Shown here one piece after another: positions 5,075-33,322 of a DNA stretch of 64,000 bases. The stretch is from Candidatus Aenigmatarchaeota archaeon. Its GTDB lineage: Archaea > Aenigmatarchaeota > Aenigmatarchaeia > GW2011-AR5. The DNA lies in contig JACQID010000006.1 of the NCBI GenBank assembly GCA_016198685.1, forward strand, positions 115,388-179,387. The letters run 5' to 3'. Position numbers and translations under genes: made by a program. The notes beneath the pieces are model-generated. The model did not search any database and was not told the DNA's origin. It saw only the letters and a list, made by a program, of their open reading frames with translations. How positions within the stretch are numbered: the stretch's first letter is position 1; every line of letters begins with the position of its first letter.

Positions 5075-6082
5075 TTTTTTCCTGAGAATCTTGAAATCAT
5101 AAACTTTCTCTGCTCTTTCCCTCGCTTTGCGCCCCATCTCTCGTCTTATGGCGGGTTTTTTTTGAAGCGATCTTATTTTCATGACAAACCCATGAGAATC
5201 TTCGGCTAGCATGCCGCATTTTCCGTTATCAAGATCGGTTATATTCTCGCCGATTCTTGTCGCAACAATAGCCTTGCCCATGGACATGAACTCCTTCATT
5301 TTGACCGAGCTTCTTGTTTCTGACGTAAAGAACCTGCCAAAAGGAACGAGGCAGATGTCCATCAGGTCTATGTATTTCGGTATCTCTTCGTGTTTGACAT
5401 AATCTACGAATCGGAATCTGGATTCCAAGCCGTGCGTTCTCACATGTGTCTTGAAATCCCGTACACCCTTCCCGTAGCCGACAACAAGGAATTGAGCATC
5501 CTTTATTTCCTGCGCTATCTCGGTCATTTCCTGATAAGCAAACTTTTTGCCTATTTTGCCCACATATCCTGTTATGCCTATGACCAAGCGGCCATTACTT
5601 GCATTTTTGTGACTTTTGAATTTTTCCGTATCGACGCCGTTAGGTATGTAAATTACGTTGTCTCTGCCTTTAATCGAGACAGCTATTTCTTCAAGCTTCT
5701 TGCTAACAACGACAACCTTATCGGCCATTTCCAGGCACTTGAGTTCCCAATAATGTGGGCTCAAAAGTGAAGGCGCATTCAAACGGAAGTCCGTGAATGC
5801 GTCATCCCAATCCGCAACAAGAATGCTGCCCTTCAGCTTCTTGACTATGATAGCGGGAATCGCAGAAGCTGCAAGCGGCGCTGAAGCATAGATTATTTCA
5901 TCACCGCGTATTTTCATAAAAGAGACAACAGCCTGCCTGAGAATCATGATGAGTTTCAGAGGGAAAAACGAAGGCCACCAAGGCTGGCTGATCTTCTTTG
6001 CGCCTTGCGGAAAGAGACCGGAAAGCCTTATCGAGGTCGCGTACTTTTCAGGGAGCGCGTATATGACCGCAACATTCGTCAT
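5030..6082 (-). CDS. Glycosyltransferase family 4
   Basis: IPNGVD, KMKEFMSMGKAIVAT, MGRKARERAEKVYDF. Confidence 0.85.
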   Translation of the reverse strand: MTNVAVIYALPEKYATSIRLSGLFPQGAKKISQPWWPSFFPLKLIMILRQAVVSFMKIRGDEIIYASAPLAASAIPAIIVKKLKGSILVADWDDAFTDFRLNAPSLLSPHYWELKCLEMADKVVVVSKKLEEIAVSIKGRDNVIYIPNGVDTEKFKSHKNASNGRLVIGITGYVGKIGKKFAYQEMTEIAQEIKDAQFLVVGYGKGVRDFKTHVRTHGLESRFRFVDYVKHEEIPKYIDLMDICLVPFGRFFTSETRSSVKMKEFMSMGKAIVATRIGENITDLDNGKCGMLAEDSHGFVMKIRSLQKKPAIRREMGRKARERAEKVYDFKILRKKLYNFLENVNRPISR

Positions 6083-7047: not shown

Positions 7048-7987
7048 CGGTATATTTCCTGTACCATGCGATTGTTTTCTTCAGAGAATCTTCCATGGCA
7101 AAAGCTGGTTTCCATCCAAGCATTTTCAGTGCTTTGTCGCTGGAAAGATATTGGGAATGGATTTCGCCTTTAATTGACTCCCCCCTGATTATTGGCTCGC
7201 CCTTCATGTTTGCGGCATTCATCATCGCCTTTACAATATCATAAACAGTCATAGGCTTTGAGGATCCGAAATTGAACGCCTCGCCGGCGACATCGTCAAT
7301 TTTTTCTATGATTTTCATATATGCCCGTACTGCGTCTTCCACGTATATGTATTGTCTTACGGGTGTTCCGTCGGTCCTTATTACAGGCGCTTCGTTTCGT
7401 GCTATAGACACGGCTGCCGAAGGCACTATGCGGCTCATGTTCATGTCGCCGCCTCCAAAGATATTGGCAAGCCTCGTTATGACGACAGTCACCCCGTATG
7501 TATTATGATATGCCTGCGCTATGAGATCTGCGCAAGACTTGGAAGCGTCATAAGGATGAAGACCCCTGAGAGGCGTCTCTTCTGTATACGGTAGTTCCTT
7601 CTGATAGCCGTATGCCTTGTCGCTGGATGCCACTACTACTTTGATTCCAAGAAGCCTCGCGCATTCGAGAACATTATAAGTTCCGCGAATATTGGTTTCC
7701 AGAGTTACCACGGGATTTTTATTCGCCTCAGAAACTATCGTTTGTGCCGCAAGATGCACGCAGATATTGATATTATTTTTTTCGATGGTTTTTTTCACGA
7801 ACGTCATATCCCGGATATCGCCCTTTATTGCTGTTGAAAGGCGGGAATCAAAAACCGATCCGGGGTTATCTTTATCAAACAGGGCAAAGACGGTGGCCCC
7901 CTTATTGGCCAATTCATTGGACAACCAGGACCCAAGGAATCCATTGCCGCCAGTCACGAGAATATTCAAGCCTTCCATATTTTCCAC
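7031..7987 (-). CDS. NDP-sugar 4,6-dehydratase (CDP-glucose 4,6-dehydratase-like)
   Basis: TGGNGFLG, HLAAQ, ASSDKAYG, PYDASK; adjacent to a cytidylyltransferase. Confidence 0.85.
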   Translation of the reverse strand: MENMEGLNILVTGGNGFLGSWLSNELANKGATVFALFDKDNPGSVFDSRLSTAIKGDIRDMTFVKKTIEKNNINICVHLAAQTIVSEANKNPVVTLETNIRGTYNVLECARLLGIKVVVASSDKAYGYQKELPYTEETPLRGLHPYDASKSCADLIAQAYHNTYGVTVVITRLANIFGGGDMNMSRIVPSAAVSIARNEAPVIRTDGTPVRQYIYVEDAVRAYMKIIEKIDDVAGEAFNFGSSKPMTVYDIVKAMMNAANMKGEPIIRGESIKGEIHSQYLSSDKALKMLGWKPAFAMEDSLKKTIAWYRKYTGVGNE

Positions 7988-9767: not shown

Positions 9768-10585
9768 CTTTTACCACCCTTATCAGTCATAGGCGGTGGT
9801 ATTATCGTTCCTTGCAGTGCCGTCTTTTCAGCCTTCAGGTATGATTCCATATCCCCTATGTCTATCCAGAACGGAAGCTTGGTAACGAAAGCCGCAAGCT
9901 TCTTAGTTTTTACCAAAGCCGGAAATACTGATCTTTCCACTTTCTCCTTGCCGCGTGGCAGAATATCATAAACATCGGAGAGTTCCAAGACATAATAACC
10001 CGCATTTGCAAGTTTCGATGCGGAGGATGTGGGTTTTTCAACAAAGCTTTTCACAAGGTCGCATCCGGCCGCCTTTTCGATCTCAGCAATGCCGAATCTT
10101 GATATGTCTTCTTTAGGAACATCGAAAAGCGCAACAGTAGCCGATATCCCTAACTTCTTCCTGCAAGCATCGTGATATTTCAGCATGCCTGCAATGTCGA
10201 TGTCTGTTATATTATCTCCATATGCAACAATTATCTTCTGGCCTTGCAAATGGGTTTTTTCTATTATATGTTTAAGATCGCCGCCTGTCTCTCTTTGCGG
10301 GGTCTTGATAGTTTTTATTAATCCCGCAAATTCCTTTATGTGCTTCACATAATTTTCTATGCTTTTTGCATGGCTCTCGGCCACGTTTTTTTCATCGATG
10401 TCCTCTTCCTCGGATCCATCCGCTATGCCAAGCAAGATTTCATCGATACCAGGGCATTTTGAGATGTTAGTCACGACCCAGTTCAGCACAGGAACCCCGT
10501 GCACAGGTATAAGAGGCTTGGGTATGCCGTAAGTGAGAGGTCTTAGTCTCGTGCCTTTTCCTGCGGCGAGTATGATTGCCTTCAT
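9764..10585 (-). CDS. Sugar-phosphate nucleotidyltransferase
   Basis: MKAIILAAGKGTRLRPLT..PKPL, YGD, FVEKP, WIDIG; start placed at MKAII. Confidence 0.88.
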   Translation of the reverse strand: MKAIILAAGKGTRLRPLTYGIPKPLIPVHGVPVLNWVVTNISKCPGIDEILLGIADGSEEEDIDEKNVAESHAKSIENYVKHIKEFAGLIKTIKTPQRETGGDLKHIIEKTHLQGQKIIVAYGDNITDIDIAGMLKYHDACRKKLGISATVALFDVPKEDISRFGIAEIEKAAGCDLVKSFVEKPTSSASKLANAGYYVLELSDVYDILPRGKEKVERSVFPALVKTKKLAAFVTKLPFWIDIGDMESYLKAEKTALQGTIIPPPMTDKGGKS

Positions 10586-19648: not shown

Positions 19649-19694
19649 TAAGGTGGGAAATTTCCTTTTTAAGTTTTCATTAGCAATCATTTTA

Positions 19695-20435
19695 ATGAGG
19701 CTTATTCTTTCTTTGAAAGCGGAAAAGGACATGGCTTATGATCAGAAGTATTTCGGCAAAGCGCAGGGACTTATTTACGGTCTCCTGAAAGGCGGCCCGT
19801 ACGACAAGCTGCACGACAAGAAAGGCTTCAAGTTTTTCTGTTTCTCCAATGTTTTTCCGACAAAGAAAGACGAGCCAATAAAGGAAGGTTCTGTGAAGAG
19901 CTTCATAATTTCGTCTCCTGACAGGAATTTCATTTCCGCCTTGAGCGATGCAGTGCCTGTAGGCACCAAGATAGAAATAGGTGAAATGCAGTTTTCATTG
20001 GTCGGAAAGAAGACTGTCCAGCCGAAATTGACCGGCGACTGTAGGATAAAGATAATGACCCCCCTAATACTCCGGATACCCAAGCGCATGTACGCGGAGT
20101 ACGGGATAGAAAACAACTACAATTACACCTACTGGAGGCCCCAGACGGACGTTAACGCTTTCCTTAAGCAGTTGTCGGACAACGTATACAAGAAATACAA
20201 CGAGTTCCACAAGACGGACGTCAAGGAAGACTACATCTTCCAGCAGTTTATGTTCAGCGGCAGCCATCCGATTCACCCCATAATTGACCAGATTGAGCAG
20301 ACGATAATAGGCAGCTACTGGACTTTCATGTTCCAGGGCCTTGGCGAACAGCAGCGCGCCCTGCTCGAGTTCGCTCTTGACTCTGGGTTCGGCGAACTCA
20401 ACTCTATGGGATTCGGGTTCGGGAATGATGTGTGA
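19695..20435 (+). CDS. cas6: CRISPR-associated endoribonuclease Cas6
   Basis: LHD..GFKFFCFS, ISSPD, C-terminal G-loop GFGELNSMGFG. Confidence 0.93.
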   Translation: MRLILSLKAEKDMAYDQKYFGKAQGLIYGLLKGGPYDKLHDKKGFKFFCFSNVFPTKKDEPIKEGSVKSFIISSPDRNFISALSDAVPVGTKIEIGEMQFSLVGKKTVQPKLTGDCRIKIMTPLILRIPKRMYAEYGIENNYNYTYWRPQTDVNAFLKQLSDNVYKKYNEFHKTDVKEDYIFQQFMFSGSHPIHPIIDQIEQTIIGSYWTFMFQGLGEQQRALLEFALDSGFGELNSMGFGFGNDV

Positions 20436-20456: not shown

Positions 20457-22250
20457 ATGATTAAACAATTGGTTGAATTTGTAGAGAAATTCCCTGCAAG
20501 AAGTTGGGGAGTAGAACGACTCAAAAACGATCTCGAGCGGTCAAAAAAGAACTTTTTCTTTGCAGTTAATACCAGAGATGACATAAAATACAACGATTTT
20601 CATATAGTGGGGATAGAAAATCCATTTCCTAAAGAAAAAGAGCTATCAAAGAAATTCATCGGCTTGGAGAAATGGTCAGAACAAAACAAAAGTTTACTGA
20701 AATATACGGAGTTTCGTCCATATAGAAAGCCGATAGGGAGTCATAACTCATGTTTAGGCAGTAATAGCGGGCTTGGAACAATAAGTCTTTCGCACTTTGA
20801 GCTGGAAAAAGGGAAAAAAGTAGATGAAAAACTTTCTATGCAGAAAGGGATTAGAGACGAAATCCTCAAAGTTTTTAACGACAAAAAAACTGGCAAAGTC
20901 GTTGCGCATATGCGGGCAATAAATGACGGAATTTTTCAAAATTTAAAAATTAACAGAGGAAAATTAGAAGATTTGTACACCGATTTTTTCAATGACTTAT
21001 TTACTAAAATACCCGAAGAATCGTATAAACAAATATTCAAACACGAGGTCGTAATTTTCAATGATGTAATTCTGGGAATAAAACCACAAGATCGTGTGAA
21101 AAATGAGGATGACGCAGAATCATTTATATATCCTAAATATTTTAATGGTCAGAATAGTAAAAAGCCATTTTTAATAGAATCTAGAACCCGTCCGATTAAA
21201 CGGAACTTGTTAATATCGAAAGCGGATCAAGAAAGAATACATGAATTTATGGTTAAAATACTTCCGGATATAGGAACGCCTTTCATTTTGCCTTTAGAAG
21301 AAAAATTGCAGAAAAAGATGGCTGGAGATATTGCATATAATGAAAAAAATTTCTTTAAAACAGTAGAAAATTTGTTGGATAAAAAAGAGGGAAATAATGG
21401 AACAATTGCAGACAGATTTGATTTCTATTTTGTAGACCTGAGAGCCGGAAAAATATGTTTTTTTGATTATGTATCCAATTATCGGTATGATTTCCAGAAC
21501 CCTTTTTATGAAATTTTCCCGTTGGAAACGAGTATAAAATCGACACAATTTAATAGAAGGAATCTCAATGAAATATTTTCTAGGTTATTGGGTCAAAATA
21601 AAAGCCTTTCGTGCATCCCATGGGCCGATATTCCGAAAAACATGAATACTTCAAAGAAATCTGCATACATCCGGCTTCGGGAAAAAATGTTTGAAACAAT
21701 ATATCTTGGAAAAGCAGTATTGACGGAATATGAAGTGGCAAATCTATGTATTATGTTGATTGAAGATAGTATAATTAATGAAGATCATGCCAAAGTCGGC
21801 CATATTACAAATGATTGTTTAAATTTTTTTATTAACTCTTATTTGTATACTGTTGGAGGCGAAAATATGAGGGAAGATGTAATATCAAAAGCAAAAAAAA
21901 TTCAAGAACAAGTGTCCGGTAAAAAATTTAATCCTATTAGCAAGGAATCAGCGTTTTACTTATTGGGAAGGCTACTCAAAAGACTATGCGATAAATCAGA
22001 AACGTCTAATGAAAAATCAAGACTTCTCCAGCCGATAATAAACACTCATACTATTTCAGGGCTTAATAGAGTTGTCACTGAAAAATTTGTAGAGAAATAT
22101 GCCTATAAAATCAGTGAGAATGATATTGAAACAGCGGAGCTTATAAATAAAGTCCTGCCGTTTTTTGCAGAACAAGACGGAGAAGAACCTATCAGAGATC
22201 TTAAACTATGGCTTTATGCTGGGTTTTTCTCTAATATGAAAGAGGTGTGA
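20457..22250 (+). CDS. cas8b: Type I-B large subunit Cas8b (Csh1-like)
   Basis: Position between cas6 and cas7; N.KKPFL motif; helical C-terminus FYLLGRLL...KYAYKI...YAGF. Confidence 0.78.
   Translation: MIKQLVEFVEKFPARSWGVERLKNDLERSKKNFFFAVNTRDDIKYNDFHIVGIENPFPKEKELSKKFIGLEKWSEQNKSLLKYTEFRPYRKPIGSHNSCLGSNSGLGTISLSHFELEKGKKVDEKLSMQKGIRDEILKVFNDKKTGKVVAHMRAINDGIFQNLKINRGKLEDLYTDFFNDLFTKIPEESYKQIFKHEVVIFNDVILGIKPQDRVKNEDDAESFIYPKYFNGQNSKKPFLIESRTRPIKRNLLISKADQERIHEFMVKILPDIGTPFILPLEEKLQKKMAGDIAYNEKNFFKTVENLLDKKEGNNGTIADRFDFYFVDLRAGKICFFDYVSNYRYDFQNPFYEIFPLETSIKSTQFNRRNLNEIFSRLLGQNKSLSCIPWADIPKNMNTSKKSAYIRLREKMFETIYLGKAVLTEYEVANLCIMLIEDSIINEDHAKVGHITNDCLNFFINSYLYTVGGENMREDVISKAKKIQEQVSGKKFNPISKESAFYLLGRLLKRLCDKSETSNEKSRLLQPIINTHTISGLNRVVTEKFVEKYAYKISENDIETAELINKVLPFFAEQDGEEPIRDLKLWLYAGFFSNMKEV
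21867..22250 (+). CDS. cas11: Internally translated small subunit Cas11 (in frame within cas8b)
   Basis: GGAGG at 21855-21859 followed by an in-frame ATG at 21867, giving a 127-aa helical product. Confidence 0.6.
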   Translation: MREDVISKAKKIQEQVSGKKFNPISKESAFYLLGRLLKRLCDKSETSNEKSRLLQPIINTHTISGLNRVVTEKFVEKYAYKISENDIETAELINKVLPFFAEQDGEEPIRDLKLWLYAGFFSNMKEV

Positions 22251-22254
22251 AAAT

Positions 22255-23169
22255 ATGGATAAGAAAGAATTCAATAATTGGGCAGTAGGTATATCGGTCG
22301 TGCGTTCAATAAACGGGAATTTCAATGCAGACATATCGAGAATGCCAAGAACGCTTCCTGACAAAAAAGGAACAATATATGCAACTGACAAGGCACTCAA
22401 ATATTGCATAAGAAACTATTTGGTTAATGCTAAGAAGGCCAAGGTCTTTATGTGGAGAAGGCAGAACGATAAGCGTGAGCCACTGAACATAGATGAAAAT
22501 TTCAACGTATTATTCAAAAAAGATCCCAAAAGAAGTACCAGAGAAGAAATACTTAATACCCTTCTTACGTGTATTGATGTAAGACTCTTTGGATGTACAT
22601 ATGCTGGAGAAAAAAATAATATTGCGATACACGGGACAACCCAAATTTCATACGGAGTGAATGGTATTCAAGATAATCTTGTTTACTCAAATCAAATATT
22701 AAGTCCGTTCCAAAACTTGAAGAAAGGCGATACGACCCAAGCAACAATGGGCGATGAGTCAAAGGCCCTTGATGTCTGTTATGTGTATGACTACAACATA
22801 AACCCAAACAATATTGGCGCGGATAATGAACAGAGGCTAACTGAAGATGATGTCGAAACGTTTAAGGAAGCTTTGTGCAGGGGAGTAAACAGTGTTAACA
22901 CGACCACAAAAATCGGTTCGGAAACGCTGTTAGTAGTATACGTAGAATTGAACAAGCCAAAAATGCTACAAAATCTGAAAAAGCTTATTCAAATATCAAA
23001 GGACAATGAAGGAAACGTGGCCATAAATATTACTAAACTTGTGGAATATCTAAAGAAATTTGATGGCGATATAGTAAAATCGCAAATTTTTCACGAAAAG
23101 GAAAAAACAAATGTCGTGAACGAAGAGAAATGGGGCAAACTTAAAGAAACAGACCTATTCGGCGAGTGA
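22255..23169 (+). CDS. cas7: Type I-B Cas7 (Csh2-like)
   Basis: NFNAD..RMPR, YATDKALKYCIRNY, IDVRLFG, TTTKIG. Confidence 0.9.
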   Translation: MDKKEFNNWAVGISVVRSINGNFNADISRMPRTLPDKKGTIYATDKALKYCIRNYLVNAKKAKVFMWRRQNDKREPLNIDENFNVLFKKDPKRSTREEILNTLLTCIDVRLFGCTYAGEKNNIAIHGTTQISYGVNGIQDNLVYSNQILSPFQNLKKGDTTQATMGDESKALDVCYVYDYNINPNNIGADNEQRLTEDDVETFKEALCRGVNSVNTTTKIGSETLLVVYVELNKPKMLQNLKKLIQISKDNEGNVAINITKLVEYLKKFDGDIVKSQIFHEKEKTNVVNEEKWGKLKETDLFGE

Positions 23170-23175
23170 TTAAAA

Positions 23176-23928
23176 ATGAGCAAAGTACTGCAGATCTTAG
23201 TTAGTTCAGAGTTTGCTCTGTTTAAACGGAATGACAGTAACGAATTTGCTCTTACATACAATTTTCCCCCGAAAACCCAGATTCTTGGATTACTGGGGGC
23301 AATAATTGGTCTTTCGGGCTATTCTAAGAATGAAAGTAAAGCCGATTTTTATGAAAAACTTAAAGGCTTCAAAGTGGCGATAATACCTGTAGACGAAAAT
23401 AATAAAGCTGTTACAGAACCACCAAAAAAGACTGTTATAACATACAACAACTATCATGGATATGGGAGTATGGAAGAAGGGGGCATACTTCAGGTGAGGG
23501 AGCAATTATTGATTGAACCTAGATATAGAATATTTATTTTTGGGGAAGGCGAGTATTATGATAAATTAAAAAAGAAACTGGAAATGCACGAATATTTTTA
23601 TACGCCTTACTTGGGAAAAAATGAATTTCTTGCGGTAGTTGAGTATGAAGGAGAGAAAGACGCGATAAAAACAACGAAAGGAAATATAAAAATTTCAAGT
23701 ATTTTCTTGAGAGATTATGGCATATTTGCGATGTCCGAGCGAGGAAACAGGAATGAGATACAATTTATTATTGTGGAAGAATACCCTGTTTCATTCGATA
23801 CAAATTATTTGTATCAGAAAAAAATCGTTATATATTCGGACGGCATGCATATTCCGAACTATGAGAAGGTAGAAAAAGACGGTTTTAGAATACTTGAAGT
23901 CGAAGGACAGCATTTATTTTTTATATAA
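23176..23928 (+). CDS. cas5: Type I-B Cas5
   Basis: FALFK, TYNFPPKTQILGLLGAIIG, EQLLIEP.YRI, PYLGKNEF. Confidence 0.9.
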   Translation: MSKVLQILVSSEFALFKRNDSNEFALTYNFPPKTQILGLLGAIIGLSGYSKNESKADFYEKLKGFKVAIIPVDENNKAVTEPPKKTVITYNNYHGYGSMEEGGILQVREQLLIEPRYRIFIFGEGEYYDKLKKKLEMHEYFYTPYLGKNEFLAVVEYEGEKDAIKTTKGNIKISSIFLRDYGIFAMSERGNRNEIQFIIVEEYPVSFDTNYLYQKKIVIYSDGMHIPNYEKVEKDGFRILEVEGQHLFFI

Positions 23929-23947
23929 ATATGAACAGGATAATTGT

Positions 23948-26596
23948 ATGCTGGAAACTTTATGGGCGTATGAACATATATTTCCTAAAAACGTTTTAGA
24001 GAATATATATGCCCATACAGATGACGCTGGAAATTATGAATCCATGGAGATGCACGGGGAAAGAACTCTTTCTAAAGCAAATGATATTATCTCAAAACTG
24101 CATCTTAGTAATATTTTGACGACGCTGAACGGTAAATTATACACAGAACTCAATAGCAATTGCCCCAATGACACTATGAGTCAGGAAGAATTTAATTCTA
24201 ATATGAAGGTACTTCTGGGAACCATTATTTACCTTCACGATATTGGAAAAATAAATAAAAAATATCAACATGAGAGGCTTGAAAATAATGGTGGAGGAAT
24301 TGACGGGTTCATAAATTCTTATCATAGCGCTTATGGGCATATGCTAATAAATCAACTTTTGTTCTCTAAAAAATTGGACACGCCTTTTTATAAAAATAGC
24401 AGACTTGAATTTTGTGCTATAGTGCTTACGACTATCATCAATAGACATCACACGCCATTGCTTGATGTAAAACAATCACCTAGATATAATAGTAGAGGCG
24501 TTTGGGACAATTATAGTAAGCAAATAGATGAGAATTCAATAGGTTTAGCGAATGCTTGCAAACAATCTATTGTAGGAGAGTTTGATATAGAAGTTGAACA
24601 GAACAATAAACACATGTACTCTCAATACTTGGAGAATGGGCGAATGCCCGATAGTATGTTTTTTATGTACAAACTATGGTATTCTATTCTTGTTCAAGCG
24701 GACTGTTTTGCTGCCGAATTATTTTCAGAAAAGAAAGAACCCGAAATAAATTTCATTGACAAAACATTAATGGTGGAGTTGCAGAATAATTTTTATTCTA
24801 CAAAAGAATATAATAGTGAACTCGGAAAAAAAGATTACCTTTTGGGTATGCCAGTAGAAAAAATTGAAGACATTAATGCTCTTAGAACAAGGATGCTATT
24901 AGAGGCTTGCCATACACTTAGAAAGCATGGGGAGAAAAGAATCTTTTATTTGGATGTTCCAACAGGCGGCGGCAAGACGAATATATCAATAAAGCTCGCA
25001 CTTGATTTAGTGGGAAAAGAAAATCTTGTCAGAATAAATTATGTGTTTCCTTTTGTTAATATTATAGAACAAAACCATAGCGAAATAGAAAAAACTCTTA
25101 GGCAGGAGGGAAAGGATACGATATCAAAAATATATATGCTTTCTGACTGGGGGTTTGACGGGGAAACAGAAAAAGAGAACTTTAGACTCAGAAATCAGAG
25201 GTTTCTAAACTATCCGGTGAATGTAGTATCCAATGCAAATTTTTTTAATATATTCCTTAAAAATTCAAAGAAGGCGACTATCAAGATATTAGAATTATGT
25301 AACAGCGTTGTGATACTTGACGAAATCCAATCATTGCCTAATAAAAAATGGATTTATTTCGTAACGTTATTGAAGGGACTTTCAGAATTATATAATATAT
25401 ATTTCATTATAATGAGTGCCACATTGCCAGATTTACGATTATTATTGGGCGAGGAAGGGAAAAAACAGTTTGACGCAATCAATCTATTAGCTCACCCTGA
25501 AATTTATGCAAAACATTCGCGAATGAAGCGGGTTACTTATCAAATAATGAAAGATGCCGATCCAGAGAACGAAATTGATGAAATATTTAAAATATACAAA
25601 AATATAATTGCACAAGAAAAATACAAGAAAATACTTATTGTTGTTAATACCATCGCGGATAGCATAGAAATATATAAAAAAATAGCGAGCCCTAAAGGGT
25701 TCAAAGTATTTCTTCTGAATTCTGCAACTCTGTCTCATAGAAAGAAGGAAGTAATCGATAGCGTAAAATCCGAGCAAAACGTCATTTTGGTATCTACTCA
25801 ATCTGTTGAAGCTGGCGTGGACATAGATTGTGATGTTGGTATAAGGTCCGATGCACCTCTTGATTCTATAGAGCAAGTTGCTGGTAGAGTAAACAGAAAT
25901 GGAGTAAAATCCGTTAAATTATCAAAAGTTTTTGTAGTGCCTTCCAAATCGAAAAAGAATGTCTATGCGGAAGATATTAGAAACATGTTTGACATAACTG
26001 GAGTTAATGGCTTAGATTGTGAAACTCTGTTGCTGAATCGGGATTTTGATTCCTATTACAGAAAAATAATGGAGCGTGTTCTGGAAAGAGAGGATATGAC
26101 TAAAACGAATAAATCACAATTGCTGGAGCCTATGAATAATCTTGAGTTTGATACATTGAACCGACAAGATTATATCGAATCTAAAAGTTTCTCAATTTTC
26201 TTGCCTGTAAAAATAGATTTGAAATATTTTACAAAGCATATGGAATTTATCAATCGAAATAATCTGTCAATAAATGGTCATCTTGACGGTAAGAAAGTTT
26301 GGGAATTCTACATTGGCAATAAAGATAGTAGATTCATTGGCGCTAATAACATGAAAAAAATGCAAATATTGATACAAAGCTTCTGCATCAATCTGACGGA
26401 GCCAAAAAGCTCGAAAAATACATTGAATTTTAGAGAGTTTATAAAATCTTCTCTTAATTTTGCTCAGGAAAGCGAACAAAATATTCTATTCGCGGACGAA
26501 AATTTTGTAAACAAATATTTTGATGAAAATTTTGGTTTGGATATACAAAAAATAAGAAACGATTTCAAAGAATCGAGAGATATGACCATTATCTAA
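23948..26596 (+). CDS. cas3: Cas3 HD nuclease-helicase
   Basis: YAH, LHDIGK, HH, QAD (HD domain); PTGGGKT, DEIQ, MSAT, EAGVDID, QVAGRVNR (SF2 helicase). Confidence 0.95.
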   Translation: MLETLWAYEHIFPKNVLENIYAHTDDAGNYESMEMHGERTLSKANDIISKLHLSNILTTLNGKLYTELNSNCPNDTMSQEEFNSNMKVLLGTIIYLHDIGKINKKYQHERLENNGGGIDGFINSYHSAYGHMLINQLLFSKKLDTPFYKNSRLEFCAIVLTTIINRHHTPLLDVKQSPRYNSRGVWDNYSKQIDENSIGLANACKQSIVGEFDIEVEQNNKHMYSQYLENGRMPDSMFFMYKLWYSILVQADCFAAELFSEKKEPEINFIDKTLMVELQNNFYSTKEYNSELGKKDYLLGMPVEKIEDINALRTRMLLEACHTLRKHGEKRIFYLDVPTGGGKTNISIKLALDLVGKENLVRINYVFPFVNIIEQNHSEIEKTLRQEGKDTISKIYMLSDWGFDGETEKENFRLRNQRFLNYPVNVVSNANFFNIFLKNSKKATIKILELCNSVVILDEIQSLPNKKWIYFVTLLKGLSELYNIYFIIMSATLPDLRLLLGEEGKKQFDAINLLAHPEIYAKHSRMKRVTYQIMKDADPENEIDEIFKIYKNIIAQEKYKKILIVVNTIADSIEIYKKIASPKGFKVFLLNSATLSHRKKEVIDSVKSEQNVILVSTQSVEAGVDIDCDVGIRSDAPLDSIEQVAGRVNRNGVKSVKLSKVFVVPSKSKKNVYAEDIRNMFDITGVNGLDCETLLLNRDFDSYYRKIMERVLEREDMTKTNKSQLLEPMNNLEFDTLNRQDYIESKSFSIFLPVKIDLKYFTKHMEFINRNNLSINGHLDGKKVWEFYIGNKDSRFIGANNMKKMQILIQSFCINLTEPKSSKNTLNFREFIKSSLNFAQESEQNILFADENFVNKYFDENFGLDIQKIRNDFKESRDMTII

Positions 26597-26722
26597 TTTT
26601 CTGCGTGCAACGACACAGAACCCATACATTTTCTTATTTTTCCGCTTCAAACACGGCAAAAATGATAGGTCTGCCGTCCAAAAACAAGAAAGGCTTAATA
26701 AATTTTAATATTATGATAGATT

Positions 26723-26808
26723 ATAGTAATCAAAAATGATAACTTTAACGTATAAAAACACTGAAAATAATGTTTTAATAGTATATAGTAATCAATATTG
26801 ATTACTAT
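26723..26808. promoter_or_regulatory. Two 24-bp palindromic operators upstream of abiEi
   Basis: Perfect palindrome ATAGTAATCAATATTGATTACTAT at 26785-26808; 20/24 copy ATAGTAATCAAAAATGATAACTTT at 26723-26746; TATA-like TTTAAA at 26823-26828. Confidence 0.75.
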
Positions 26809-26849
26809 GATAAAACAAAGTATTTAAACAATGGCACGAATATAGAAAT

Positions 26850-27551
26850 ATGAAGACGATAGAACTCCTGCAGAAGCTAAGAACTATGCCAGTTTTCACG
26901 GTAAATGATCTCTCCCGCATCCTGGGCAAAAGCGACAAATACGTGAAAGTTGTTGCGTACAGGCTCTGCAAACAGGGTCTTGTGAAGCGCATTGAGAGAG
27001 GGAAATATACCGTATATGACGATGCTGTGGAAATAGCGTCGTACATAACAACGCCTTCTTACATAAGCTTCTGGACGGCTCTTCGCATATACGGTCTTAC
27101 CGAGCAGCTACCGTCAGACGCTATGGTAGCAGTAACGAAGCCCAAAAAAGAGATAGATTTTGGGGGCACGAAAATAGCGTTTGCGAAAACGCGCCATTTC
27201 TGGGCGTATGGCAAGATGCGCTACAGAGAATTTGACATATTCATTGCAGACAAGGAGAAGTCCGTGATAGACAGCATGCTCTCGAAAAATACGCCGTTTG
27301 AAGAAGCGGCCAAGGCAATCTTGAGCGGCAAACTGAACTATGAAAAGCTTGTGGAATACGTTCGGAAGACTAAAAATCAATCGCTTGCCAAACGCGTTGG
27401 GTATCTCATGGAGAAAAATAAGGTTGATGCCAATGGACTCCTCGGCATGGTCGGGACATTGTATACGCGCTTAGACACATCGAGGAAAGTCAAAGGGAAG
27501 AGGGATTTCCGTTGGAAAATAATCGTCAATTCGGATGTGGATAAAATATGA
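26850..27551 (+). CDS. abiEi: Type IV TA antitoxin AbiEi
   Basis: N-terminal wHTH (VFTVNDL...RL.KQG.VKRIERGKY), PSYIS..TAL..YGLTEQ.P, ADKEKS.ID, KRVGYL. Confidence 0.88.
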   Translation: MKTIELLQKLRTMPVFTVNDLSRILGKSDKYVKVVAYRLCKQGLVKRIERGKYTVYDDAVEIASYITTPSYISFWTALRIYGLTEQLPSDAMVAVTKPKKEIDFGGTKIAFAKTRHFWAYGKMRYREFDIFIADKEKSVIDSMLSKNTPFEEAAKAILSGKLNYEKLVEYVRKTKNQSLAKRVGYLMEKNKVDANGLLGMVGTLYTRLDTSRKVKGKRDFRWKIIVNSDVDKI

Positions 27552-28330
27552 TATCTTTGGAAGAACTGAAATCGAAGGCAAAGTTAAAGGGGCTCGGGTT
27601 AGGAAACGCCGAAAAGGATTACCTGCTTGACTTGGTGCTTTTTTGGATATCAAAGAATACGAGAGACGAACTTATTTTCAAGGGAGGGACATGCCTGTAC
27701 AAGTTTTACGGTCTGGGACGGTTTAGCGAGGACGTGGACTTTACCGCGGCGAAGCCAATAGACGTCGAGAGGTTATTGCAATCTATAACATCGGGCATAG
27801 AGCAATTCGGGATAAACTGCCATGTCAGGGAAAAAAGAGAGCCCTTCAATTCGGTTCTTGCAACCATTAGATGCGAGGGTCCCCTTTACAACGGCACGCC
27901 GCAGACGTATTCAAGCGTCAGGATAGACATAAACAAGAAGTCCAGCATAGACATGGCGCCCGTGCTCAAGAGCTACTCTTCCATATATACTGAAATTCCA
28001 TCATTCTCCATCCTGACGATGCAAGAGGGCGAAATAATGGCGGAAAAGGCGAGGGCTATCGTGACGAGGAACAAGGCCAGGGACTTGTATGACTTGTGGC
28101 ATCTTATGACAAAAGGCATAATTATAGACAAAAACGTGATAGCGAAAAAGCTGGAATACTATAAAGCAGAATTTAACTATGCGGAATTTGAAAAAGCGGT
28201 AAAGGAAAAGGAATCCGTGTGGGAAAGGGATCTTAAACCGCTTATAAGGAATTTGCCGGACTTTAATGAAATCCAAAAATCTGTACTCTCCGAGGCCAAA
28301 AAATGGAACTCCCGAAAGAAGCGTCAGTGA
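27548..28330 (+). CDS. abiEii: Type IV TA toxin AbiEii/AbiGii nucleotidyltransferase
   Basis: EKDY, FKGGTCL...RFSEDVDF, AEK.RA, RDLYDL; ATGA overlap with abiEi. Confidence 0.92.
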   Translation: MISLEELKSKAKLKGLGLGNAEKDYLLDLVLFWISKNTRDELIFKGGTCLYKFYGLGRFSEDVDFTAAKPIDVERLLQSITSGIEQFGINCHVREKREPFNSVLATIRCEGPLYNGTPQTYSSVRIDINKKSSIDMAPVLKSYSSIYTEIPSFSILTMQEGEIMAEKARAIVTRNKARDLYDLWHLMTKGIIIDKNVIAKKLEYYKAEFNYAEFEKAVKEKESVWERDLKPLIRNLPDFNEIQKSVLSEAKKWNSRKKRQ

Positions 28331-28803
28331 CAGGCGTCCAAGTTGCGTATTACATTATATGCAAACGCAAGTTGTGGCTATTTTCACATAAGATAACGAT
28401 GGAGCATACTTCCGAGAAGGTCGCGATGGGAAGGATGCTTCATGAGGAATCATATGGTAGGAAGAAGAAGGAAATTGGGATAGGCAGCATAAAGATAGAT
28501 TTTATCGAAAACAAAGGCGAAATCCACGAAGTGAAAAAGTCGAAAAGCCTTGAAGACGCCCACGAATGGCAGATGCTGTATTATCTCTATTATTTCAAGA
28601 AGTTGGGTATGGACATGAAAGGGAAGATAGATTATCCGCTCACGCGGCAGAGGGTCGATGTGACGCTCACAGAAGAAAAAGAAAAACAGCTGGAACAGAT
28701 TTTACGAGAAATCCAATCGATAACAGGCAAAGACTCGCCGCAAGAGCCTGTAAAACTCCCGTACTGCAAATCCTGCAGTTATTTCAATTTCTGCTGGTGC
28801 TGA
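28303..28803 (+). CDS. cas4: Cas4
   Basis: YY.ICKRKLWLF, G.LHE, KID, HEVKKS, Q..YYLY, C..CSY..FC. Confidence 0.93.
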   Translation: MELPKEASVTGVQVAYYIICKRKLWLFSHKITMEHTSEKVAMGRMLHEESYGRKKKEIGIGSIKIDFIENKGEIHEVKKSKSLEDAHEWQMLYYLYYFKKLGMDMKGKIDYPLTRQRVDVTLTEEKEKQLEQILREIQSITGKDSPQEPVKLPYCKSCSYFNFCWC

Positions 28804-28940
28804 CAGTTAGCGAGCTTTAAATAATCACTTATGAGCACAGGTTGTGATATGAGCTTATCAAAACGCAATGTCTTGTGTGAGAAAACCATTTATTAAACAA
28901 AGGCGAGAGTAATATATATTTCTGATGCGCAGATGATGCA

Positions 28941-29930
28941 ATGGAAAAGAATTATTACATACTCAAAAGTGGCCGGCTCAGAAGGAAGCAGAATACGGTT
29001 TACTTCGAGGACAAAGACGGTCAGAAGCCGATACCGGTAAATGCGATAAATGCTATCTTCGCCTTTGGCGAACTGGACATAAACTCAAAGCTTCTGTTGT
29101 TTCTCTCGAAAAACAAGATAGCGGTTCATTTTTTTAATTATTACGGTTTCTATTCTGGAAGCTTTTATCCGCGGGAATATCTTCTTTCCGGATTTCTTCT
29201 TGTAAAGCAGGCGGAAAGTTATCTTAACCCGGAGCGGCGGATAAACATAGCCAAAGAATTCATAAGAACCGCATCATTCAATATATTGCAAAACCTTAAT
29301 TATTATGAGCGGCAAGGCAAAGACGTTTCTGCGACCATAAGAGCCATAGAATCGGAAAGAAATAATATAGAGACTGCCAGAAATATACCCGAACTGATGG
29401 GATCCGAAGGGCGAATGCGTGATCTCTATTACCAGTCATTTGATTCCATGCTTCGACCGGGCTTCGAGTTTGAGAAGCGCACGAAGAGGCCGCCGGAAAA
29501 TATGATAAATTGCCTGATTTCTTTCGGCAATCAGCTCCTTTATACGGCGGTATTGAGTGAAATATACCACACCCAGCTCAATCCCACGATATCGTATCTT
29601 CATGAACCCGGAGCGAGGCGGTTTTCATTAAGCCTTGACGTAAGCGAAGTATTCAAGCCGATAATAGTAGACAGGATAATTTTCAATCTTATCAACAACA
29701 GAATAATAAAGGAGGAGCATTTCGACGACAATCTCAAATTCTGTTATCTGAATGAGGCAGGCCGGAGGATATTCTTGTCGCATTTTGACGAGAAAATGAA
29801 AACCACCATACAGCATAAAACGCTGAAAAGGAAAGTATCTTACCGTACTCTTATAAGGCTCGAATGCTATAGGCTGATAAAACACATAATTGAAGGCAAA
29901 AAATATGAAGGCTTCAGGATGTGGTGGTAA
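28941..29930 (+). CDS. cas1: Type I-B Cas1
   Basis: HFFNYYGFYSGSFYPRE, G.EG..R..YY, RPP.N..N.LISFGN, YLHEP...RFSLSLD.SEVFKP, MWW end. Confidence 0.96.
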   Translation: MEKNYYILKSGRLRRKQNTVYFEDKDGQKPIPVNAINAIFAFGELDINSKLLLFLSKNKIAVHFFNYYGFYSGSFYPREYLLSGFLLVKQAESYLNPERRINIAKEFIRTASFNILQNLNYYERQGKDVSATIRAIESERNNIETARNIPELMGSEGRMRDLYYQSFDSMLRPGFEFEKRTKRPPENMINCLISFGNQLLYTAVLSEIYHTQLNPTISYLHEPGARRFSLSLDVSEVFKPIIVDRIIFNLINNRIIKEEHFDDNLKFCYLNEAGRRIFLSHFDEKMKTTIQHKTLKRKVSYRTLIRLECYRLIKHIIEGKKYEGFRMWW

Positions 29931-30193
29931 TGTACGTTATCATAGTCTACGATATCGCGCAGGAGAGGGTTTCCAAGGCATGCAGCCTGCTGAGGCGATA
30001 CCTAAATTGGATCCAAAACTCCGTTTTTGAAGGTGAGGTCTCGGAAAGCGGGCTCCATAAGATAAAACAGGAAATCAAGAAAGTTGTAAAAGAAAGTGAG
30101 GATTCAGTCATTTTCTATGTTACCACGAGCAAAAAAATCGTGGAAAGGGAAGTTCTAGGCATAGAAAAGAATGACACCTCGAACCTGATATGA
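29930..30193 (+). CDS. cas2: Cas2
   Basis: MYVIIVYDI, WIQNSVFEGE, DSVIFY; TAATG overlap with cas1. Confidence 0.95.
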   Translation: MYVIIVYDIAQERVSKACSLLRRYLNWIQNSVFEGEVSESGLHKIKQEIKKVVKESEDSVIFYVTTSKKIVEREVLGIEKNDTSNLI

Positions 30194-30294
30194 TTTTCGG
30201 GGACATTTATATATCGGGCTCACTATCCGTACTTCCCGAAACGTGTTTAAAAATACTCGTGAATATACCATAAATAAGCCGGTTTGCCCCGGGT
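30194..30294 (+). promoter_or_regulatory. CRISPR leader
   Basis: Non-coding ~100 bp between cas2 and the first repeat, with a TTTATATA box flanked by TTTCGGG/CCCGAAA. Confidence 0.75.
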
Positions 30295-31603
30295 GTTTGA
30301 AGAGTACTTTTGTAGTATTGAAATTTACTCCAGGGCATACAGCTTGATCCGGCACAAACTGTTTGAAGAGTACTTTTGTAGTATTGAAATTTTAAGATTC
30401 TCATGATTGAGGTTGTCGATGATGATAAGTTTGAAGAGTACTTTTGTAGTATTGAAATTCGTCCTTCTCGCTCGCTACTCTTGTTGATAACGAACCGTTT
30501 GAAGAGTACTTTTGTAGTATTGAAATCTGAATTTAGATGTTCGCGATTTCGAAGAATTCAAAGGTTTGAAGAGTACTTTTGTAGTATTGAAATGCGAAAC
30601 TTATTACAGCGACCATTATCTCACGTTCATAAGTTTGAAGAGTACTTTTGTAGTATTGAAATTGTGTTAATTTCAGGTGCAGCCACAGACGCATCTGCAG
30701 TTTGAAGAGTACTTTTGTAGTATTGAAATCTTGTTATACCGTTCTCAGTTACGGAAGTGATGGTAGGTTTGAAGAGTACTTTTGTAGTATTGAAATTCGA
30801 CAGTGTTAGATATTGGGTCGCGGAATCTACCGGGTTTGAAGAGTACTTTTGTAGTATTGAAATTCATGCACCCCGATAAGCAAGCCCAAGTATTTGTCTG
30901 TTTGAAGAGTACTTTTGTAGTATTGAAATAAAGAATCTGACGCATGAAACAGGGAATACGCATTTAGTTTGAAGAGTACTTTTGTAGTATTGAAATTCGG
31001 GCGCACCGCCTGCTGGCGCTGTTTCTGAAACGTGTTTGAAGAGTACTTTTGTAGTATTGAAATAGTTCATCGTTCAATTCTCTAAGAGCAAGAATTTCGT
31101 CACGGTTTGAAGAGTACTTTTGTAGTATTGAAATACTGCGAAAACTGCTTCGAGTGCGCCTGACGCAACGCCCAGTTTGAAGAGTACTTTTGTAGTATTG
31201 AAATCAGCACGCCCTTGTCCGTGCTACCAAACTGCCGCTGCGTTTGAAGAGTACTTTTGTAGTATTGAAATTGAGGCCGAAGTTGTAAACAGAAAAGGGG
31301 AAAAACGTTTGAAGAGTACTTTTGTAGTATTGAAATCTGATCGCCTTCAAAGGAGTAGGGCTTGATTTTTCTTTGTTTGAAGAGTACTTTTGTAGTATTG
31401 AAATTACCATAGCGTCATGCTTTCACCTCGTCAAGTAGCCGTTTGAAGAGTACTTTTGTAGTATTGAAATATCAATTTTTCAAGAACATTCTGATATTTG
31501 CTTTTAGTTTGAAGAGTACTTTTGTAGTATTGAAATTATCTCGCCCTGCTTGATTCTATCTCGGCAAAACTAGGTTTGAAGAGTACTTTTGTAGCATTCT
31601 TAT
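30295..31603 (+). CRISPR. CRISPR array, repeat GTTTGAAGAGTACTTTTGTAGTATTGAAAT (30 bp); 19 identical repeats plus 1 degenerate terminal repeat; 19 spacers of 35-41 bp
   Basis: Counted directly; the last repeat (31574) matches for 21 bp and then diverges; ATTGAAA(T) 3' end and leader position give + orientation. Confidence 0.98.
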
Positions 31604-31884
31604 ATCCTGCTGATCTTCTCAGAGAGTTTGCGTTTCTCTATGGCAAAATCCTTGAGAAACCGGTAACCCGCGGCGCTAAGCTCGGCGCCTTTTGTCGTAG
31701 GCTGCAGGAAGCTGCATTGCTGTATTATGCGAAGAGAATAGCGTACCTGTTGCGGAGGAATCTCGGTTATTTTAGACAATTTCAGTATACCCAGAGGGCC
31801 TTGTTCCGACAGTAAGCGCATGATTCGTATGTGCCTTTCCATGAGTTGCAGTTCTTTTTTGACATTCTTTATGATTAAAACCAT
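31600..31884 (-). CDS. Archaeal winged-helix transcription regulator
   Basis: RH.RI..LL...GPLGI.KLS......QVRYSLR.....L.PT.KGA; palindrome ACTATGT-T-ACATAGT at 31888-31902 just upstream. Confidence 0.75.
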   Translation of the reverse strand: MVLIIKNVKKELQLMERHIRIMRLLSEQGPLGILKLSKITEIPPQQVRYSLRIIQQCSFLQPTTKGAELSAAGYRFLKDFAIEKRKLSEKISRI

Positions 31885-31955
31885 GTTACTATGTTACATA
31901 GTTGCACATATTTAAAGGCACGTTTCATAATCAGCAAGGTAATAGAGGTGAAACA

Positions 31956-32189
31956 ATGGAGGCACGTATAAGGCTGAGAGAGCTTAATCCGGTACCCAAA
32001 GGGTGGAAACCCATAGCCACGGTTCGCGTACCGTATGGATGCACGGATTTTACAGACGAGTGCATGCAGATAGCGCGAAACAGGGGATACGAACTTCCGG
32101 TTGCATTTGGCATTAGAATCAGCCATTCGATTCCAAGACCATATGCAGATGAACCGGATCAGAAAATAGTGCAATTTTATGCGCTTTGA
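31956..32189 (+). CDS. Hypothetical protein (77 aa)
   Basis: GAGGTGA SD before the ATG; followed by a T-rich terminator-like tract. Confidence 0.55.
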   Translation: MEARIRLRELNPVPKGWKPIATVRVPYGCTDFTDECMQIARNRGYELPVAFGIRISHSIPRPYADEPDQKIVQFYAL

Positions 32190-32245
32190 TTTTTTCCTTT
32201 TTTTGTCTTGCAAACCAATAAAAGCCTTCCAATAGATGTGATTAG

Positions 32246-33322
32246 ATGGACATCGAACGCCGCATGGAACTGATCAAGCGCCCTCCGACAGAGGAAATAA
32301 TCACAGAAGAAGACCTGCGTTCGCTTCTGCAAACAAAGCAGAAGCCCATGGCGTATGACGGCTTTGAAACCAGCGGGCTCATGCACATAGGCAGCAGCGT
32401 GCTGCGTGCGATTAAGATAAACGACTTGCTTGAAGCAAAAGTTGATTTCACGCTTTGGATAGCTGACTGGTTCGCTTACATCAACAACAAAATGAAGGGC
32501 GATATGGAGCTCATCAAGAAAACAGGTGAGTATTTCATAGAAGGATGGAAAGCATGCGGCGTTCCTGTCGAGAAGGTTCGCATCCTACGCACGAGCGATG
32601 CAGTTAAAGACCCTGATTATTGGAAGGGTGTCATCGATGTTGCCAAAGCAACGACACTACAAAGAACCCTGCGAGCCAGTCCCATAATGGGCCGGCAGGA
32701 AGCTGACATGAAATATACATCACAGCTTTTCTATCCGATGATGCAGACATGGGATCCTTTTTACTTCAACGCAGACATACTCCAGTTAGGCATGGATCAG
32801 CGTCATGCAACCATCTTGTCAAGGGAAGTTGCGCCAAAACTTGGAAGGCCAGTTCCTGTCTGCGTTCACCATCATTTGCTTGCCGGATTGCAAGGCTCGA
32901 CCGGCAGGATGGGTCAGGAGACGGCAACGCTCATGGACGAAAAAATGAGCAAGTCAAAGCCCCAGACGGCAATATTCATCCATGACAGCAAGGAAGAAAT
33001 AGAGGACAAGATAAAGAAGGCATACTGCCCTGAACGCTCGGCAGAAGGTAACCCTATCCTTGAAATGTGGAAATACATAATACTGAGAAATTTCAAATCA
33101 AGAACAATAGAACGGCCTGCAAAATTCGGGGGGAACTTGGATATATATTCTTACGAGAATCTTGAGAGCATGTATTCTGAAGGTAAACTTCATCCAATGG
33201 ACCTCAAGAAGGAAACTATTAATGCGATGGATGAAATCCTCTCTCCTGTAAGGAAGCATTTTGAAACGGGCAAAGCCAAGAAACTATATGAAACTGTCAA
33301 GACGGCGCATATCACAAGATGA
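32246..33322 (+). CDS. tyrS: Tyrosyl-tRNA synthetase (archaeal type)
   Basis: YDGFE.SG.MHIG, YP.MQ..D, LGMDQ, KMSKS. Confidence 0.95.
   Translation: MDIERRMELIKRPPTEEIITEEDLRSLLQTKQKPMAYDGFETSGLMHIGSSVLRAIKINDLLEAKVDFTLWIADWFAYINNKMKGDMELIKKTGEYFIEGWKACGVPVEKVRILRTSDAVKDPDYWKGVIDVAKATTLQRTLRASPIMGRQEADMKYTSQLFYPMMQTWDPFYFNADILQLGMDQRHATILSREVAPKLGRPVPVCVHHHLLAGLQGSTGRMGQETATLMDEKMSKSKPQTAIFIHDSKEEIEDKIKKAYCPERSAEGNPILEMWKYIILRNFKSRTIERPAKFGGNLDIYSYENLESMYSEGKLHPMDLKKETINAMDEILSPVRKHFETGKAKKLYETVKTAHITR

Follow-up and report, generated by a model that had tools for sequence, protein, structure and literature searches.

An AbiE toxin-antitoxin pair directly before cas4 in an archaeal type I-B CRISPR-Cas locus, and its survival in relatives that lost their cas genes

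What is a toxin-antitoxin pair doing in the middle of a CRISPR-Cas locus, and does it govern, protect or only accompany the cas genes on either side of it? The question is raised by a 64,000-nucleotide stretch of DNA from a Candidatus Aenigmatarchaeota archaeon (contig JACQID010000006.1, positions 115,388 to 179,387; hereafter the window), the plus strand of which carries a full type I-B CRISPR-Cas locus with the AbiE pair abiEi-abiEii between cas3 and cas4. The reading we prefer, at a probability of roughly 60%, is that this is a self-maintaining AbiE cassette, long-standing in the adaptation half of the locus, whose genes are the first two cistrons of an abiEi-abiEii-cas4 operon. The abiE-cas4-cas1-cas2 block stays together while the adjoining Cascade/Cas3 cassette is exchanged, the abiEi-abiEii-cas4 order recurs in three matching AbiEii and Cas4 subclades of DPANN archaea, and in seven lineages abiE outlived the loss of the adaptation genes.

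The abiE pair and its junction with cas4

An earlier note on this DNA, made from the sequence alone, had placed abiEi-abiEii inside the type I-B operon between cas3 and cas4, and the open reading frames (ORFs) and profile matches bear this out (Table 1). The type I-B effector set (Cas8b, Cas7b, Cas5, Cas3 and Cas6b) was matched by PADLOC and Pfam profiles, and the adaptation module cas4-cas1-cas2 adjoins the CRISPR array, as type I-B requires. The interval examined here starts at 26597, the base after the cas3 stop, and its first 253 nt are intergenic. The genome (0.93 Mb in 8 contigs, 93.7% complete) has a single AbiEii and a single intact Cas1.

The proteins of the pair are intact. AbiEii matches PF08843 at 121 bits against a cut-off of 22.5, and matches the DUF1814 PDB chains 4o8s, 4ok0 and 6y56. 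AbiEi has a near full-length PADLOC match, its match to PF09407 (0.0026) lies below the family cut-off, and a sequence search against solved structures returned no match below E = 0.3. The catalytic motifs, which the note had called intact, are indeed so: nucleotidyltransferase (NTase) motifs I-IV, defined as hGG, DhD with an upstream R, K...R and +DxxD (PMC3985639), can all be read from the AbiEii sequence (G46-G47; R58, D62 and D64; K167 and R174; R178-D179-L-Y-D182), with the motif residues invariant or at least 90% conserved in 58 relatives. Mutating the four motifs abolishes toxicity in the studied AbiE system (PMC3985639). In Cas4, four cysteines (C20, C155, C158 and C164) and the RecB-motif residues D66, K78, Q90 and Y94 are invariant. 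Compared with the related locus L016 (relatives are denoted here by L numbers), abiEi, abiEii and cas4 show proportions of nonsynonymous differences (pN) of 0.20-0.24 and of synonymous differences (pS) of 0.74-0.85, with 0.235 and 0.824 for abiEi; all three genes are intact and under purifying selection. A predicted AbiEii-Cas4 complex scored 0.00 against a mark of 0.32, which is evidence neither way, and no relatives of AbiEii were found in viral contigs.

The three genes are tightly packed. abiEi and abiEii overlap by 4 nt (ATGA), and the coordinates confirm the overlap of 28 nt between abiEii and cas4 (28303-28330) reported earlier. The cas4 ATG at 28303 is kept in all five members of the window subclade (the window, L058, L016, L017 and L059), and a GAGG at 28291-28294, 9-12 nt before this ATG, is conserved in the same five. 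A GTG at 28327 was considered as the cas4 start and rejected, as it occurs only in the window and L058, with ATA in L016, L017 and L059. Outside this subclade the cas4 start lies 4 nt (ATGA) or 17 nt inside abiEii, or 10 nt beyond its end; an overlap or a gap of at most 10 nt is thus found in 7/7 intact loci, and six of the seven have no TATA-like motif at -20 to -40 of cas4. The tight junctions, the GAGG and the lack of TATA-like motifs together lend indirect support to the earlier suggestion that cas4 probably has no promoter of its own. Runs of five or more T residues, considered as terminators marking transcription units, do not discriminate them: the low-GC cas genes themselves contain many, the cas3-abiEi gap just one.

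Upstream of abiEi stand a TATA box and two palindromes, all three of which are conserved among the window, L016, L017 and L059, the TATA box being invariant in the alignments. Its distance from the abiEi ATG implies a leaderless abiEi mRNA. Among 64 non-duplicate relatives with enough upstream sequence, 44 have the exact ATCA-N4-TGAT core before abiEi, for the most part between -59 and -64 (expectation from elsewhere in the same loci, 0.004 per 170 nt), and 49 have a TATA-like match at -27 to -38. In the Streptococcus agalactiae system AbiEi acts in negative autoregulation via inverted repeats in its promoter (PMC3985639). By analogy we infer that AbiEi binds the palindromes and represses its own promoter, and it is likely, judging from the arrangement of the genes, that cas4 is transcribed from this AbiEi-controlled promoter.

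Table 1 Features of the type I-B locus in the window (window positions; GC3, G+C content at third codon positions)
Feature	Position	Strand	GC3	Evidence or description
cas6 (I-B type)	19653-20435	+	0.64	PF01881 2.6e-12; PADLOC Cas6b 2.8e-47
Interference cassette cas8b-cas7-cas5-cas3	20457-26596	+	0.30-0.38	Pfam, PADLOC; low GC3
cas8b	20457-22250	+		PADLOC Cas8b 2e-25
cas7	22255-23169	+		PADLOC Cas7b 9e-33
cas5	23176-23928	+		Pfam Cas5
cas3	23894-26596	+		PADLOC Cas3b 7e-141; Pfam helicase; Pfam HD match below cut-off
AT-rich intergenic region, 253 nt	26597-26849	+		G+C content 0.27; candidate abiE promoter/operators
Distal operator-like palindrome	26726-26743			core ATCAAAAATGAT at 26729-26740; at -121 of abiEi
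Proximal predicted operator	26786-26807			perfect 22-bp palindrome TAGTAATCAATATTGATTACTA; core ATCA-N4-TGAT at -59
TATA box TATTTAAA	26821-26828	+		29 nt before abiEi ATG
abiEi, antitoxin/repressor, 233 aa	26850-27551	+	0.56	PF13338 AbiEi_4 9.9e-9; PADLOC AbiEi 5e-49 (residues 2-232)
abiEii, nucleotidyltransferase toxin, 260 aa	27548-28330	+	0.57	PF08843 8.2e-35; PADLOC AbiEii 2e-66
cas4, 166 aa	28303-28803	+	0.55	PF01930 4e-58; PADLOC Cas4b 9e-64
cas4-cas1 spacer, 137 nt	28804-28940	+		TATA-like TAATATATAT
cas1	28941-29930	+	0.49	PF01867 3e-93
cas2	29921-30193	+	0.55	PF09827 3e-22
CRISPR array	30295-31603	+		~20 copies of 30-nt repeat GTTTGAAGAGTACTTTTGTAGTATTGAAAT, last copy degenerate

Exchange, recurrence and decay around abiE

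By its composition, and in the comparison of strains, abiE belongs to one block with the adaptation genes. The GC3 of the window locus falls into two blocks (Table 1), which are seen again in L058 and L016, and the interference cassettes of the window and L058 have values of 0.26-0.38 against 0.49-0.64 for the host-like backbone. L058, a metagenome contig of a close co-occurring strain, agrees with the window at 95% nucleotide identity in cas6 and at 98% over 26630-28799, shares cas1-cas2 and has identical repeats, but between cas6 and abiE it holds a different I-B cassette (L058:803-9087 vs. window 20457-26629), comprising Cas8b, Cas11b, a Cst2/DevR-type Cas7b, Cas5 and Cas3, together with a PDC-S01 ATPase; homology resumes at 26630, upstream of abiEi. 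In two independent groundwater/soil runs, contigs bearing abiE-cas4 branch, like L058, at 26630-26659 from contigs with the window cas3, and the same replacement, of 1407 letters, lies between 28799 and 28941. Word depth in the two runs was 38.9-43.9 for abiE-bearing contigs and 6.7-8.1 for window cas7-cas3 contigs, and because this depth is summed over all organisms we read it only as the abiE-adaptation block being present in more genomes of those runs than the window's cassette.

The cas3-abiE and cas4-cas1 junctions collect small defence genes. AAA_14/DUF4143 ATPases, which are PADLOC PDC-S01 matches (1e-107, 4e-71), lie there (L058:7808-8998, L058:11319-12659 and L039:1934-4439), and in L058 a 446-aa PDC-S01 ATPase gene replaces the cas4-cas1 spacer. 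In the window that spacer is single copy in its own genome, and summed contig depth reached 536-625 at 28878, within it, in two metagenomes; it may hold a short element common in the community.

The arrangement is not confined to this genome, and the uniqueness that the earlier note had listed among its grounds for refutation thus does not hold. AbiEii searches yielded 41 loci from species-representative genomes and 67 from metagenomes, of which 81 distinct rows were left once 16 duplicate loci and rows with abiEii running off the contig or shorter than 200 aa had been dropped. Intact cas4 directly follows abiEii in seven (the window, L058, L016 (= L057), L069, L092, L106 and L107), and a cas4 stub and/or a solitary CRISPR repeat does so in another seven (L017, L043, L059, L104, L032, L078 and L018); two have cas genes within 4 kb in another order (L039 and L065), 55 have neither cas4 nor any trace of cas linkage, and ten offer less than 300 nt of downstream sequence. 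In L016 and L107 the genes abiEi-abiEii-cas4-cas1-cas2 form one operon without gaps, and an array comes after it. The AbiEii tree mixes intact with decayed loci in four to five subclades, with the scar/intact pairs L059-L016, L043-L107, L032-L092 and L104-L106/L107 standing as sisters or in the same small clade, and in a Cas4 tree of 31 rows the abiE-linked proteins form three clusters corresponding to the AbiEii groups. Such a pattern may reflect a long shared inheritance with losses, or else a few captures at a single site. No Cas4 was found in the 43 other genomes of the window's own family.

The seven decayed loci, in which repeats were sought with blastn-short, keep abiE where cas genes have gone. 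In L043, situated between ftsZ and an FKBP gene, 158 nt of cas4 are joined to the first base of a full repeat (7923-7952); the stub is identical to the L107 Cas4 in 52/52 residues, with 85% nucleotide identity over the shared region, so that L043 is a deleted derivative of an L107-like locus. In L017 a 100-nt piece of cas4 is followed by the final 14 nt of the window-type repeat and by a deoxyhypusine synthase gene, whilst L059 keeps 64 nt of cas4 before a degenerate full repeat (5458-5487), 24/30 identical to the L016 repeat where the next best of 23,832 positions reaches 19. Only 8 nt of cas4 precede the full repeat in L104 (1329-1358) and only 4 nt (ATGA) that in L032 (1909-1937); in L078 the last 17 nt of the repeat supply the final codon and stop of abiEii, and in L018 a degenerate repeat lies 17 nt after the abiEii stop. 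Each locus has one repeat, the neighbours are housekeeping genes, and repeat-like matches of at least 14 nt are few elsewhere in ~1 Mb of loci.

In four of the seven loci (L032, L104, L043 and, to within ~3 nt, L059) the deletion ends on the first base of the repeat, the point at which leader and repeat meet and Cas1-Cas2 cuts, with no microhomology visible at the junction when L107 and L043 are compared. One candidate cause is that Cas1-Cas2 broke the DNA at this leader-repeat junction and the array then collapsed; selection for an intact repeat is another. Insertion of the abiE cassette into an array in the manner of a giant spacer was rejected, as the repeat search of the scar loci turned up none before abiEi and their stubs vary in length. 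Searches of the L043, L032 and L018 genomes (completeness not given) detected neither Cas1 nor Cas6, which disfavours use of the solitary repeat in trans by Cas6/Cascade.

Several further arrangements were met in the relatives. L092 has an intact cas4 directly behind abiE (L092:1623-2093) but lacks cas1-cas2 beyond it, so that a solo Cas4 is linked to AbiE. A distant AbiE lineage also lies next to cas4 but in reverse order: behind cas4, and on its strand, come first a short AbiEii-like ORF and next an AbiEi-like one (L131:223-1972, genome G104). A Woesearchaeota locus (L039:4418-9582) has a duplicated adaptation module with three NTase or toxin-antitoxin-like modules nested in it: cas4 and an ORF in which the N-terminal half of cas1 is fused to an MNT nucleotidyltransferase are followed by abiEi-abiEii, by a TrmB-like helix-turn-helix gene with a DUF6036 nucleotidyltransferase, and by another cas4-cas1-cas2 set, this one complete. 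One DPANN genome (G046, contig C8) has, ~6 kb upstream of its abiE scar, a cas1-cas2-cas4 set followed by a 560-aa Cas12f/Cas14-like gene (L124:2349-5897; PADLOC 1.9e-67), which looks like a type V-F locus. In L017 a S-adenosylmethionine synthetase gene of a DPANN genome is split by an intein with a LAGLIDADG domain (L017:1254-3698). Outside the window but in the same genome, a second Cas1 fragment (contig C2:18320-18718, model positions 162-283) contains one TGA and two TAA codons, and is likely the remnant of another lost adaptation module.

What the pair may do for the cas genes

The most likely origin of the arrangement would be insertion of an AbiE defence/addiction cassette at the junction between the interference and adaptation modules, where other small defence genes (PDC-S01, MNT, DUF6036) also land. 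The inserted cassette would then have become a promoter donor for the adaptation genes, with cas4 transcribed from the abiE promoter, its translation coupled by way of the GAGG that lies within abiEii, and with the operon continuing into cas1-cas2 in relatives. The adaptation genes would inherit the low, self-limited expression set by AbiEi, along with any derepression, and AbiE would preserve itself, not the cas genes.

A number of points weigh against this interpretation. Linkage to cas is not a general property of the AbiEii clade, as the 55 unlinked rows make plain, and among 371 genomes of the phylum Cas4 occurs in 25, at 27 loci, only three of which have abiE upstream (two intact, one stub), so that with 24/27 lacking it the arrangement is a minority variant. 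The searches required a complete, recognisable AbiEii, which under-samples deletions reaching into abiEii and inflates the impression that deletions always spare it. The two predicted operators are ~62 bp apart, a geometry unlike the two 23-bp inverted repeats 3 bp apart of the studied system (PMC3985639), and the case for transcription of cas4 from the abiE promoter is drawn from sequence alone. L069 has a TTTAAA at -28 of cas4, and there may be an internal promoter for cas4 inside abiEii. As to cas1-cas2, which the earlier note had tentatively added to the genes under AbiEi control, the proposal fits L016 and L107, where they are contiguous with cas4, but in the window the 137-nt spacer, with its TATA-like TAATATATAT ~25 nt before the cas1 ATG, suggests that they may have their own transcription start.

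The same facts bear on the alternatives. The arrangement could be a selected coupling, in which infection or stress relieves AbiEi repression and AbiEii slows the cell while Cas4-Cas1-Cas2 rise and capture spacers, as the hypothesis of coupled immunity and dormancy would have it (PMC3506569, PMC3632139); preservation of the operon across ~35-60% protein divergence in three subclades, and its gap-free five-gene form in L016 and L107, speak for this. We nonetheless consider it doubtful, since abiE was kept alone in the seven lineages that lost the adaptation genes, the many unlinked relatives show that AbiE does not need Cas4, and most Cas4 loci of the phylum work without abiE. A link of dormancy to adaptation is therefore possible and compatible with the conserved operon, though required by no result here. 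A bolder version, which we rate as unlikely, would make the adaptation genes of a set of DPANN archaea subordinate cistrons in an abortive-infection operon and AbiEi a master switch for spacer acquisition, with arrest and adaptation co-induced, and would add that the adaptation machinery may write its own removal, through integrase-initiated loss of cas4-cas1-cas2 and the leader and collapse of the array to one repeat with AbiE as sole survivor; the integrase step is suggested because four of the seven junctions fall on the first base of the repeat. It is similarly improbable that the pair is a neutral passenger in an insertion hot spot, with cas4 expressed from a cryptic abiEii promoter or by read-through from cas3 and AbiEi of no influence. 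The cas3-cas4 and cas4-cas1 junctions do hold PDC-S01, MNT and the DUF6036 pair in L058 and L039, there is no clear T-run terminator after cas3, and L069 has its TATA-like hexamer, but such a passenger would hardly account for the tight abiEii-cas4 junction in every intact locus, the conserved GAGG, the lack of a TATA-like motif before cas4 in the other six, or the single block that abiE forms with cas4-cas1-cas2 in composition and strain comparison.

The earlier note had also proposed that the pair makes the cas locus addictive. On such a reading AbiE is kept because it penalises loss of the adjoining cas genes and so stabilises CRISPR-Cas in streamlined genomes. AbiE does stabilise plasmids (PMC3985639), the same idea was put forward for vapBC in the cas cassettes of Sulfolobales (PMC4390879), and the one AbiEii that this 0.93-Mb genome has sits in the one cas locus that is intact there. 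The proposal fares poorly against the relatives: in seven independent deletions cas4-cas1-cas2 and the array were lost as far as the stop codon of abiEii, the adjoining interference cassette was exchanged, and L092 keeps abiE-cas4 without cas1. AbiE thus does not prevent the loss of its cas neighbours, and a cis-linked pair cannot punish deletions that spare the pair itself, so we regard addiction as quite unlikely. Least probable is that AbiEii was recruited as an adaptation enzyme, for instance as an NTase acting on prespacer ends with Cas4, and is a toxin no longer; only the translational coupling with cas4 and the conserved order speak for it, whereas abiEi is always kept alongside, every motif of the toxin is conserved, the pair survives where no cas gene is left, and nothing seen here links AbiEii physically to Cas proteins. 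The self-maintaining cassette at the head of cas4 remains the reading that we favour.

Relation to known systems and meaning for DPANN archaea

The pair has the build of the AbiE systems of Streptococcus agalactiae and Lactococcus (Dy et al. 2014, PMC3985639), likewise a COG5340-type antitoxin, with an N-terminal winged helix-turn-helix and a C-terminal domain, followed by a DUF1814 NTase, here the predicted toxin, with the same 4-nt gene overlap, all four NTase motifs and inverted repeats in the promoter. It differs from them in its archaeal TATA box and predicted leaderless start and in an operon that runs into cas4 (and into cas1-cas2 in relatives). Toxin-antitoxin pairs, vapBC among them, are interspersed in archaeal cas cassettes (Garrett et al. 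2015, PMC4390879), where, as here, a pair sits between functional cas modules and maintenance of the locus was proposed. In contrast to the type II vapBC, AbiE is a type IV system, overlaps cas4 and is conserved with it across subclades, and unlike in that proposal the decayed loci indicate that AbiE does not protect cas genes.

In CreTA, a pair of RNAs, a degenerate mini-CRISPR guides Cascade to repress the toxin, which makes Cascade addictive (PMC8501985). Like it, the module described here is a toxin module inside a type I-B locus and linked to CRISPR repeats, but both AbiE partners are proteins, with a repressor of their own, and solitary repeats occur only where the cas genes are gone. 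No CreA-like mini-CRISPR was detected, in that the repeat search matched only the array in L016/L057 and L058 and, in L039, nothing but 14 nt matched on the minus strand at 10224-10237, inside the cas1 interval, whilst the scan of the window covered 30100-32400, with 26597-28803 read and not repeat-searched. A Cascade-repressed toxin with a mini-CRISPR, the mark of CreTA, was accordingly not found. The embedded candidate PDC/HEC genes (Payne et al., preprint 10.1101/2024.01.29.577857) are likewise small defence cassettes inside another immune system, and in L058 and L039 it is PDC-S01 ATPases that sit at these junctions, though in the present case the embedding led to operon fusion; the text of that preprint does not mention AbiE, CRISPR-Cas or cas4.

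In an aquifer survey, first-line families including CRISPR-Cas and AbiE rarely co-localised (PMC12259885), and in surveys of DPANN archaea CRISPR-Cas is under-represented and AbiE enriched (PMC12988326). A literature search, with supplements outside its scope, found no paper linking AbiE to cas4 or to the adaptation module. Toxin-antitoxin pairs embedded in cas loci are already known, and AbiE heading cas4 is a new form of that habit.

Since 2012 gene neighbourhoods have been cited in favour of a coupling of immunity to dormancy or suicide in prokaryotes, and concrete operons on which to test it are few. The locus described here is such an operon, with a defined toxin-antitoxin pair and a predicted operator and promoter directly before cas4 (and cas1-cas2 in relatives), and nature supplies the controls: relatives that lack abiE, relatives that kept nothing but abiE, and strains whose interference cassettes have been exchanged. 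It also illustrates how streamlined DPANN genomes lose CRISPR-Cas, and the AbiE scars left behind may help to explain the survey pattern of CRISPR-Cas and AbiE in these archaea. If the integrase is the cause of the repeat-precise junctions, they would represent a form of CRISPR loss that is both self-inflicted and new.

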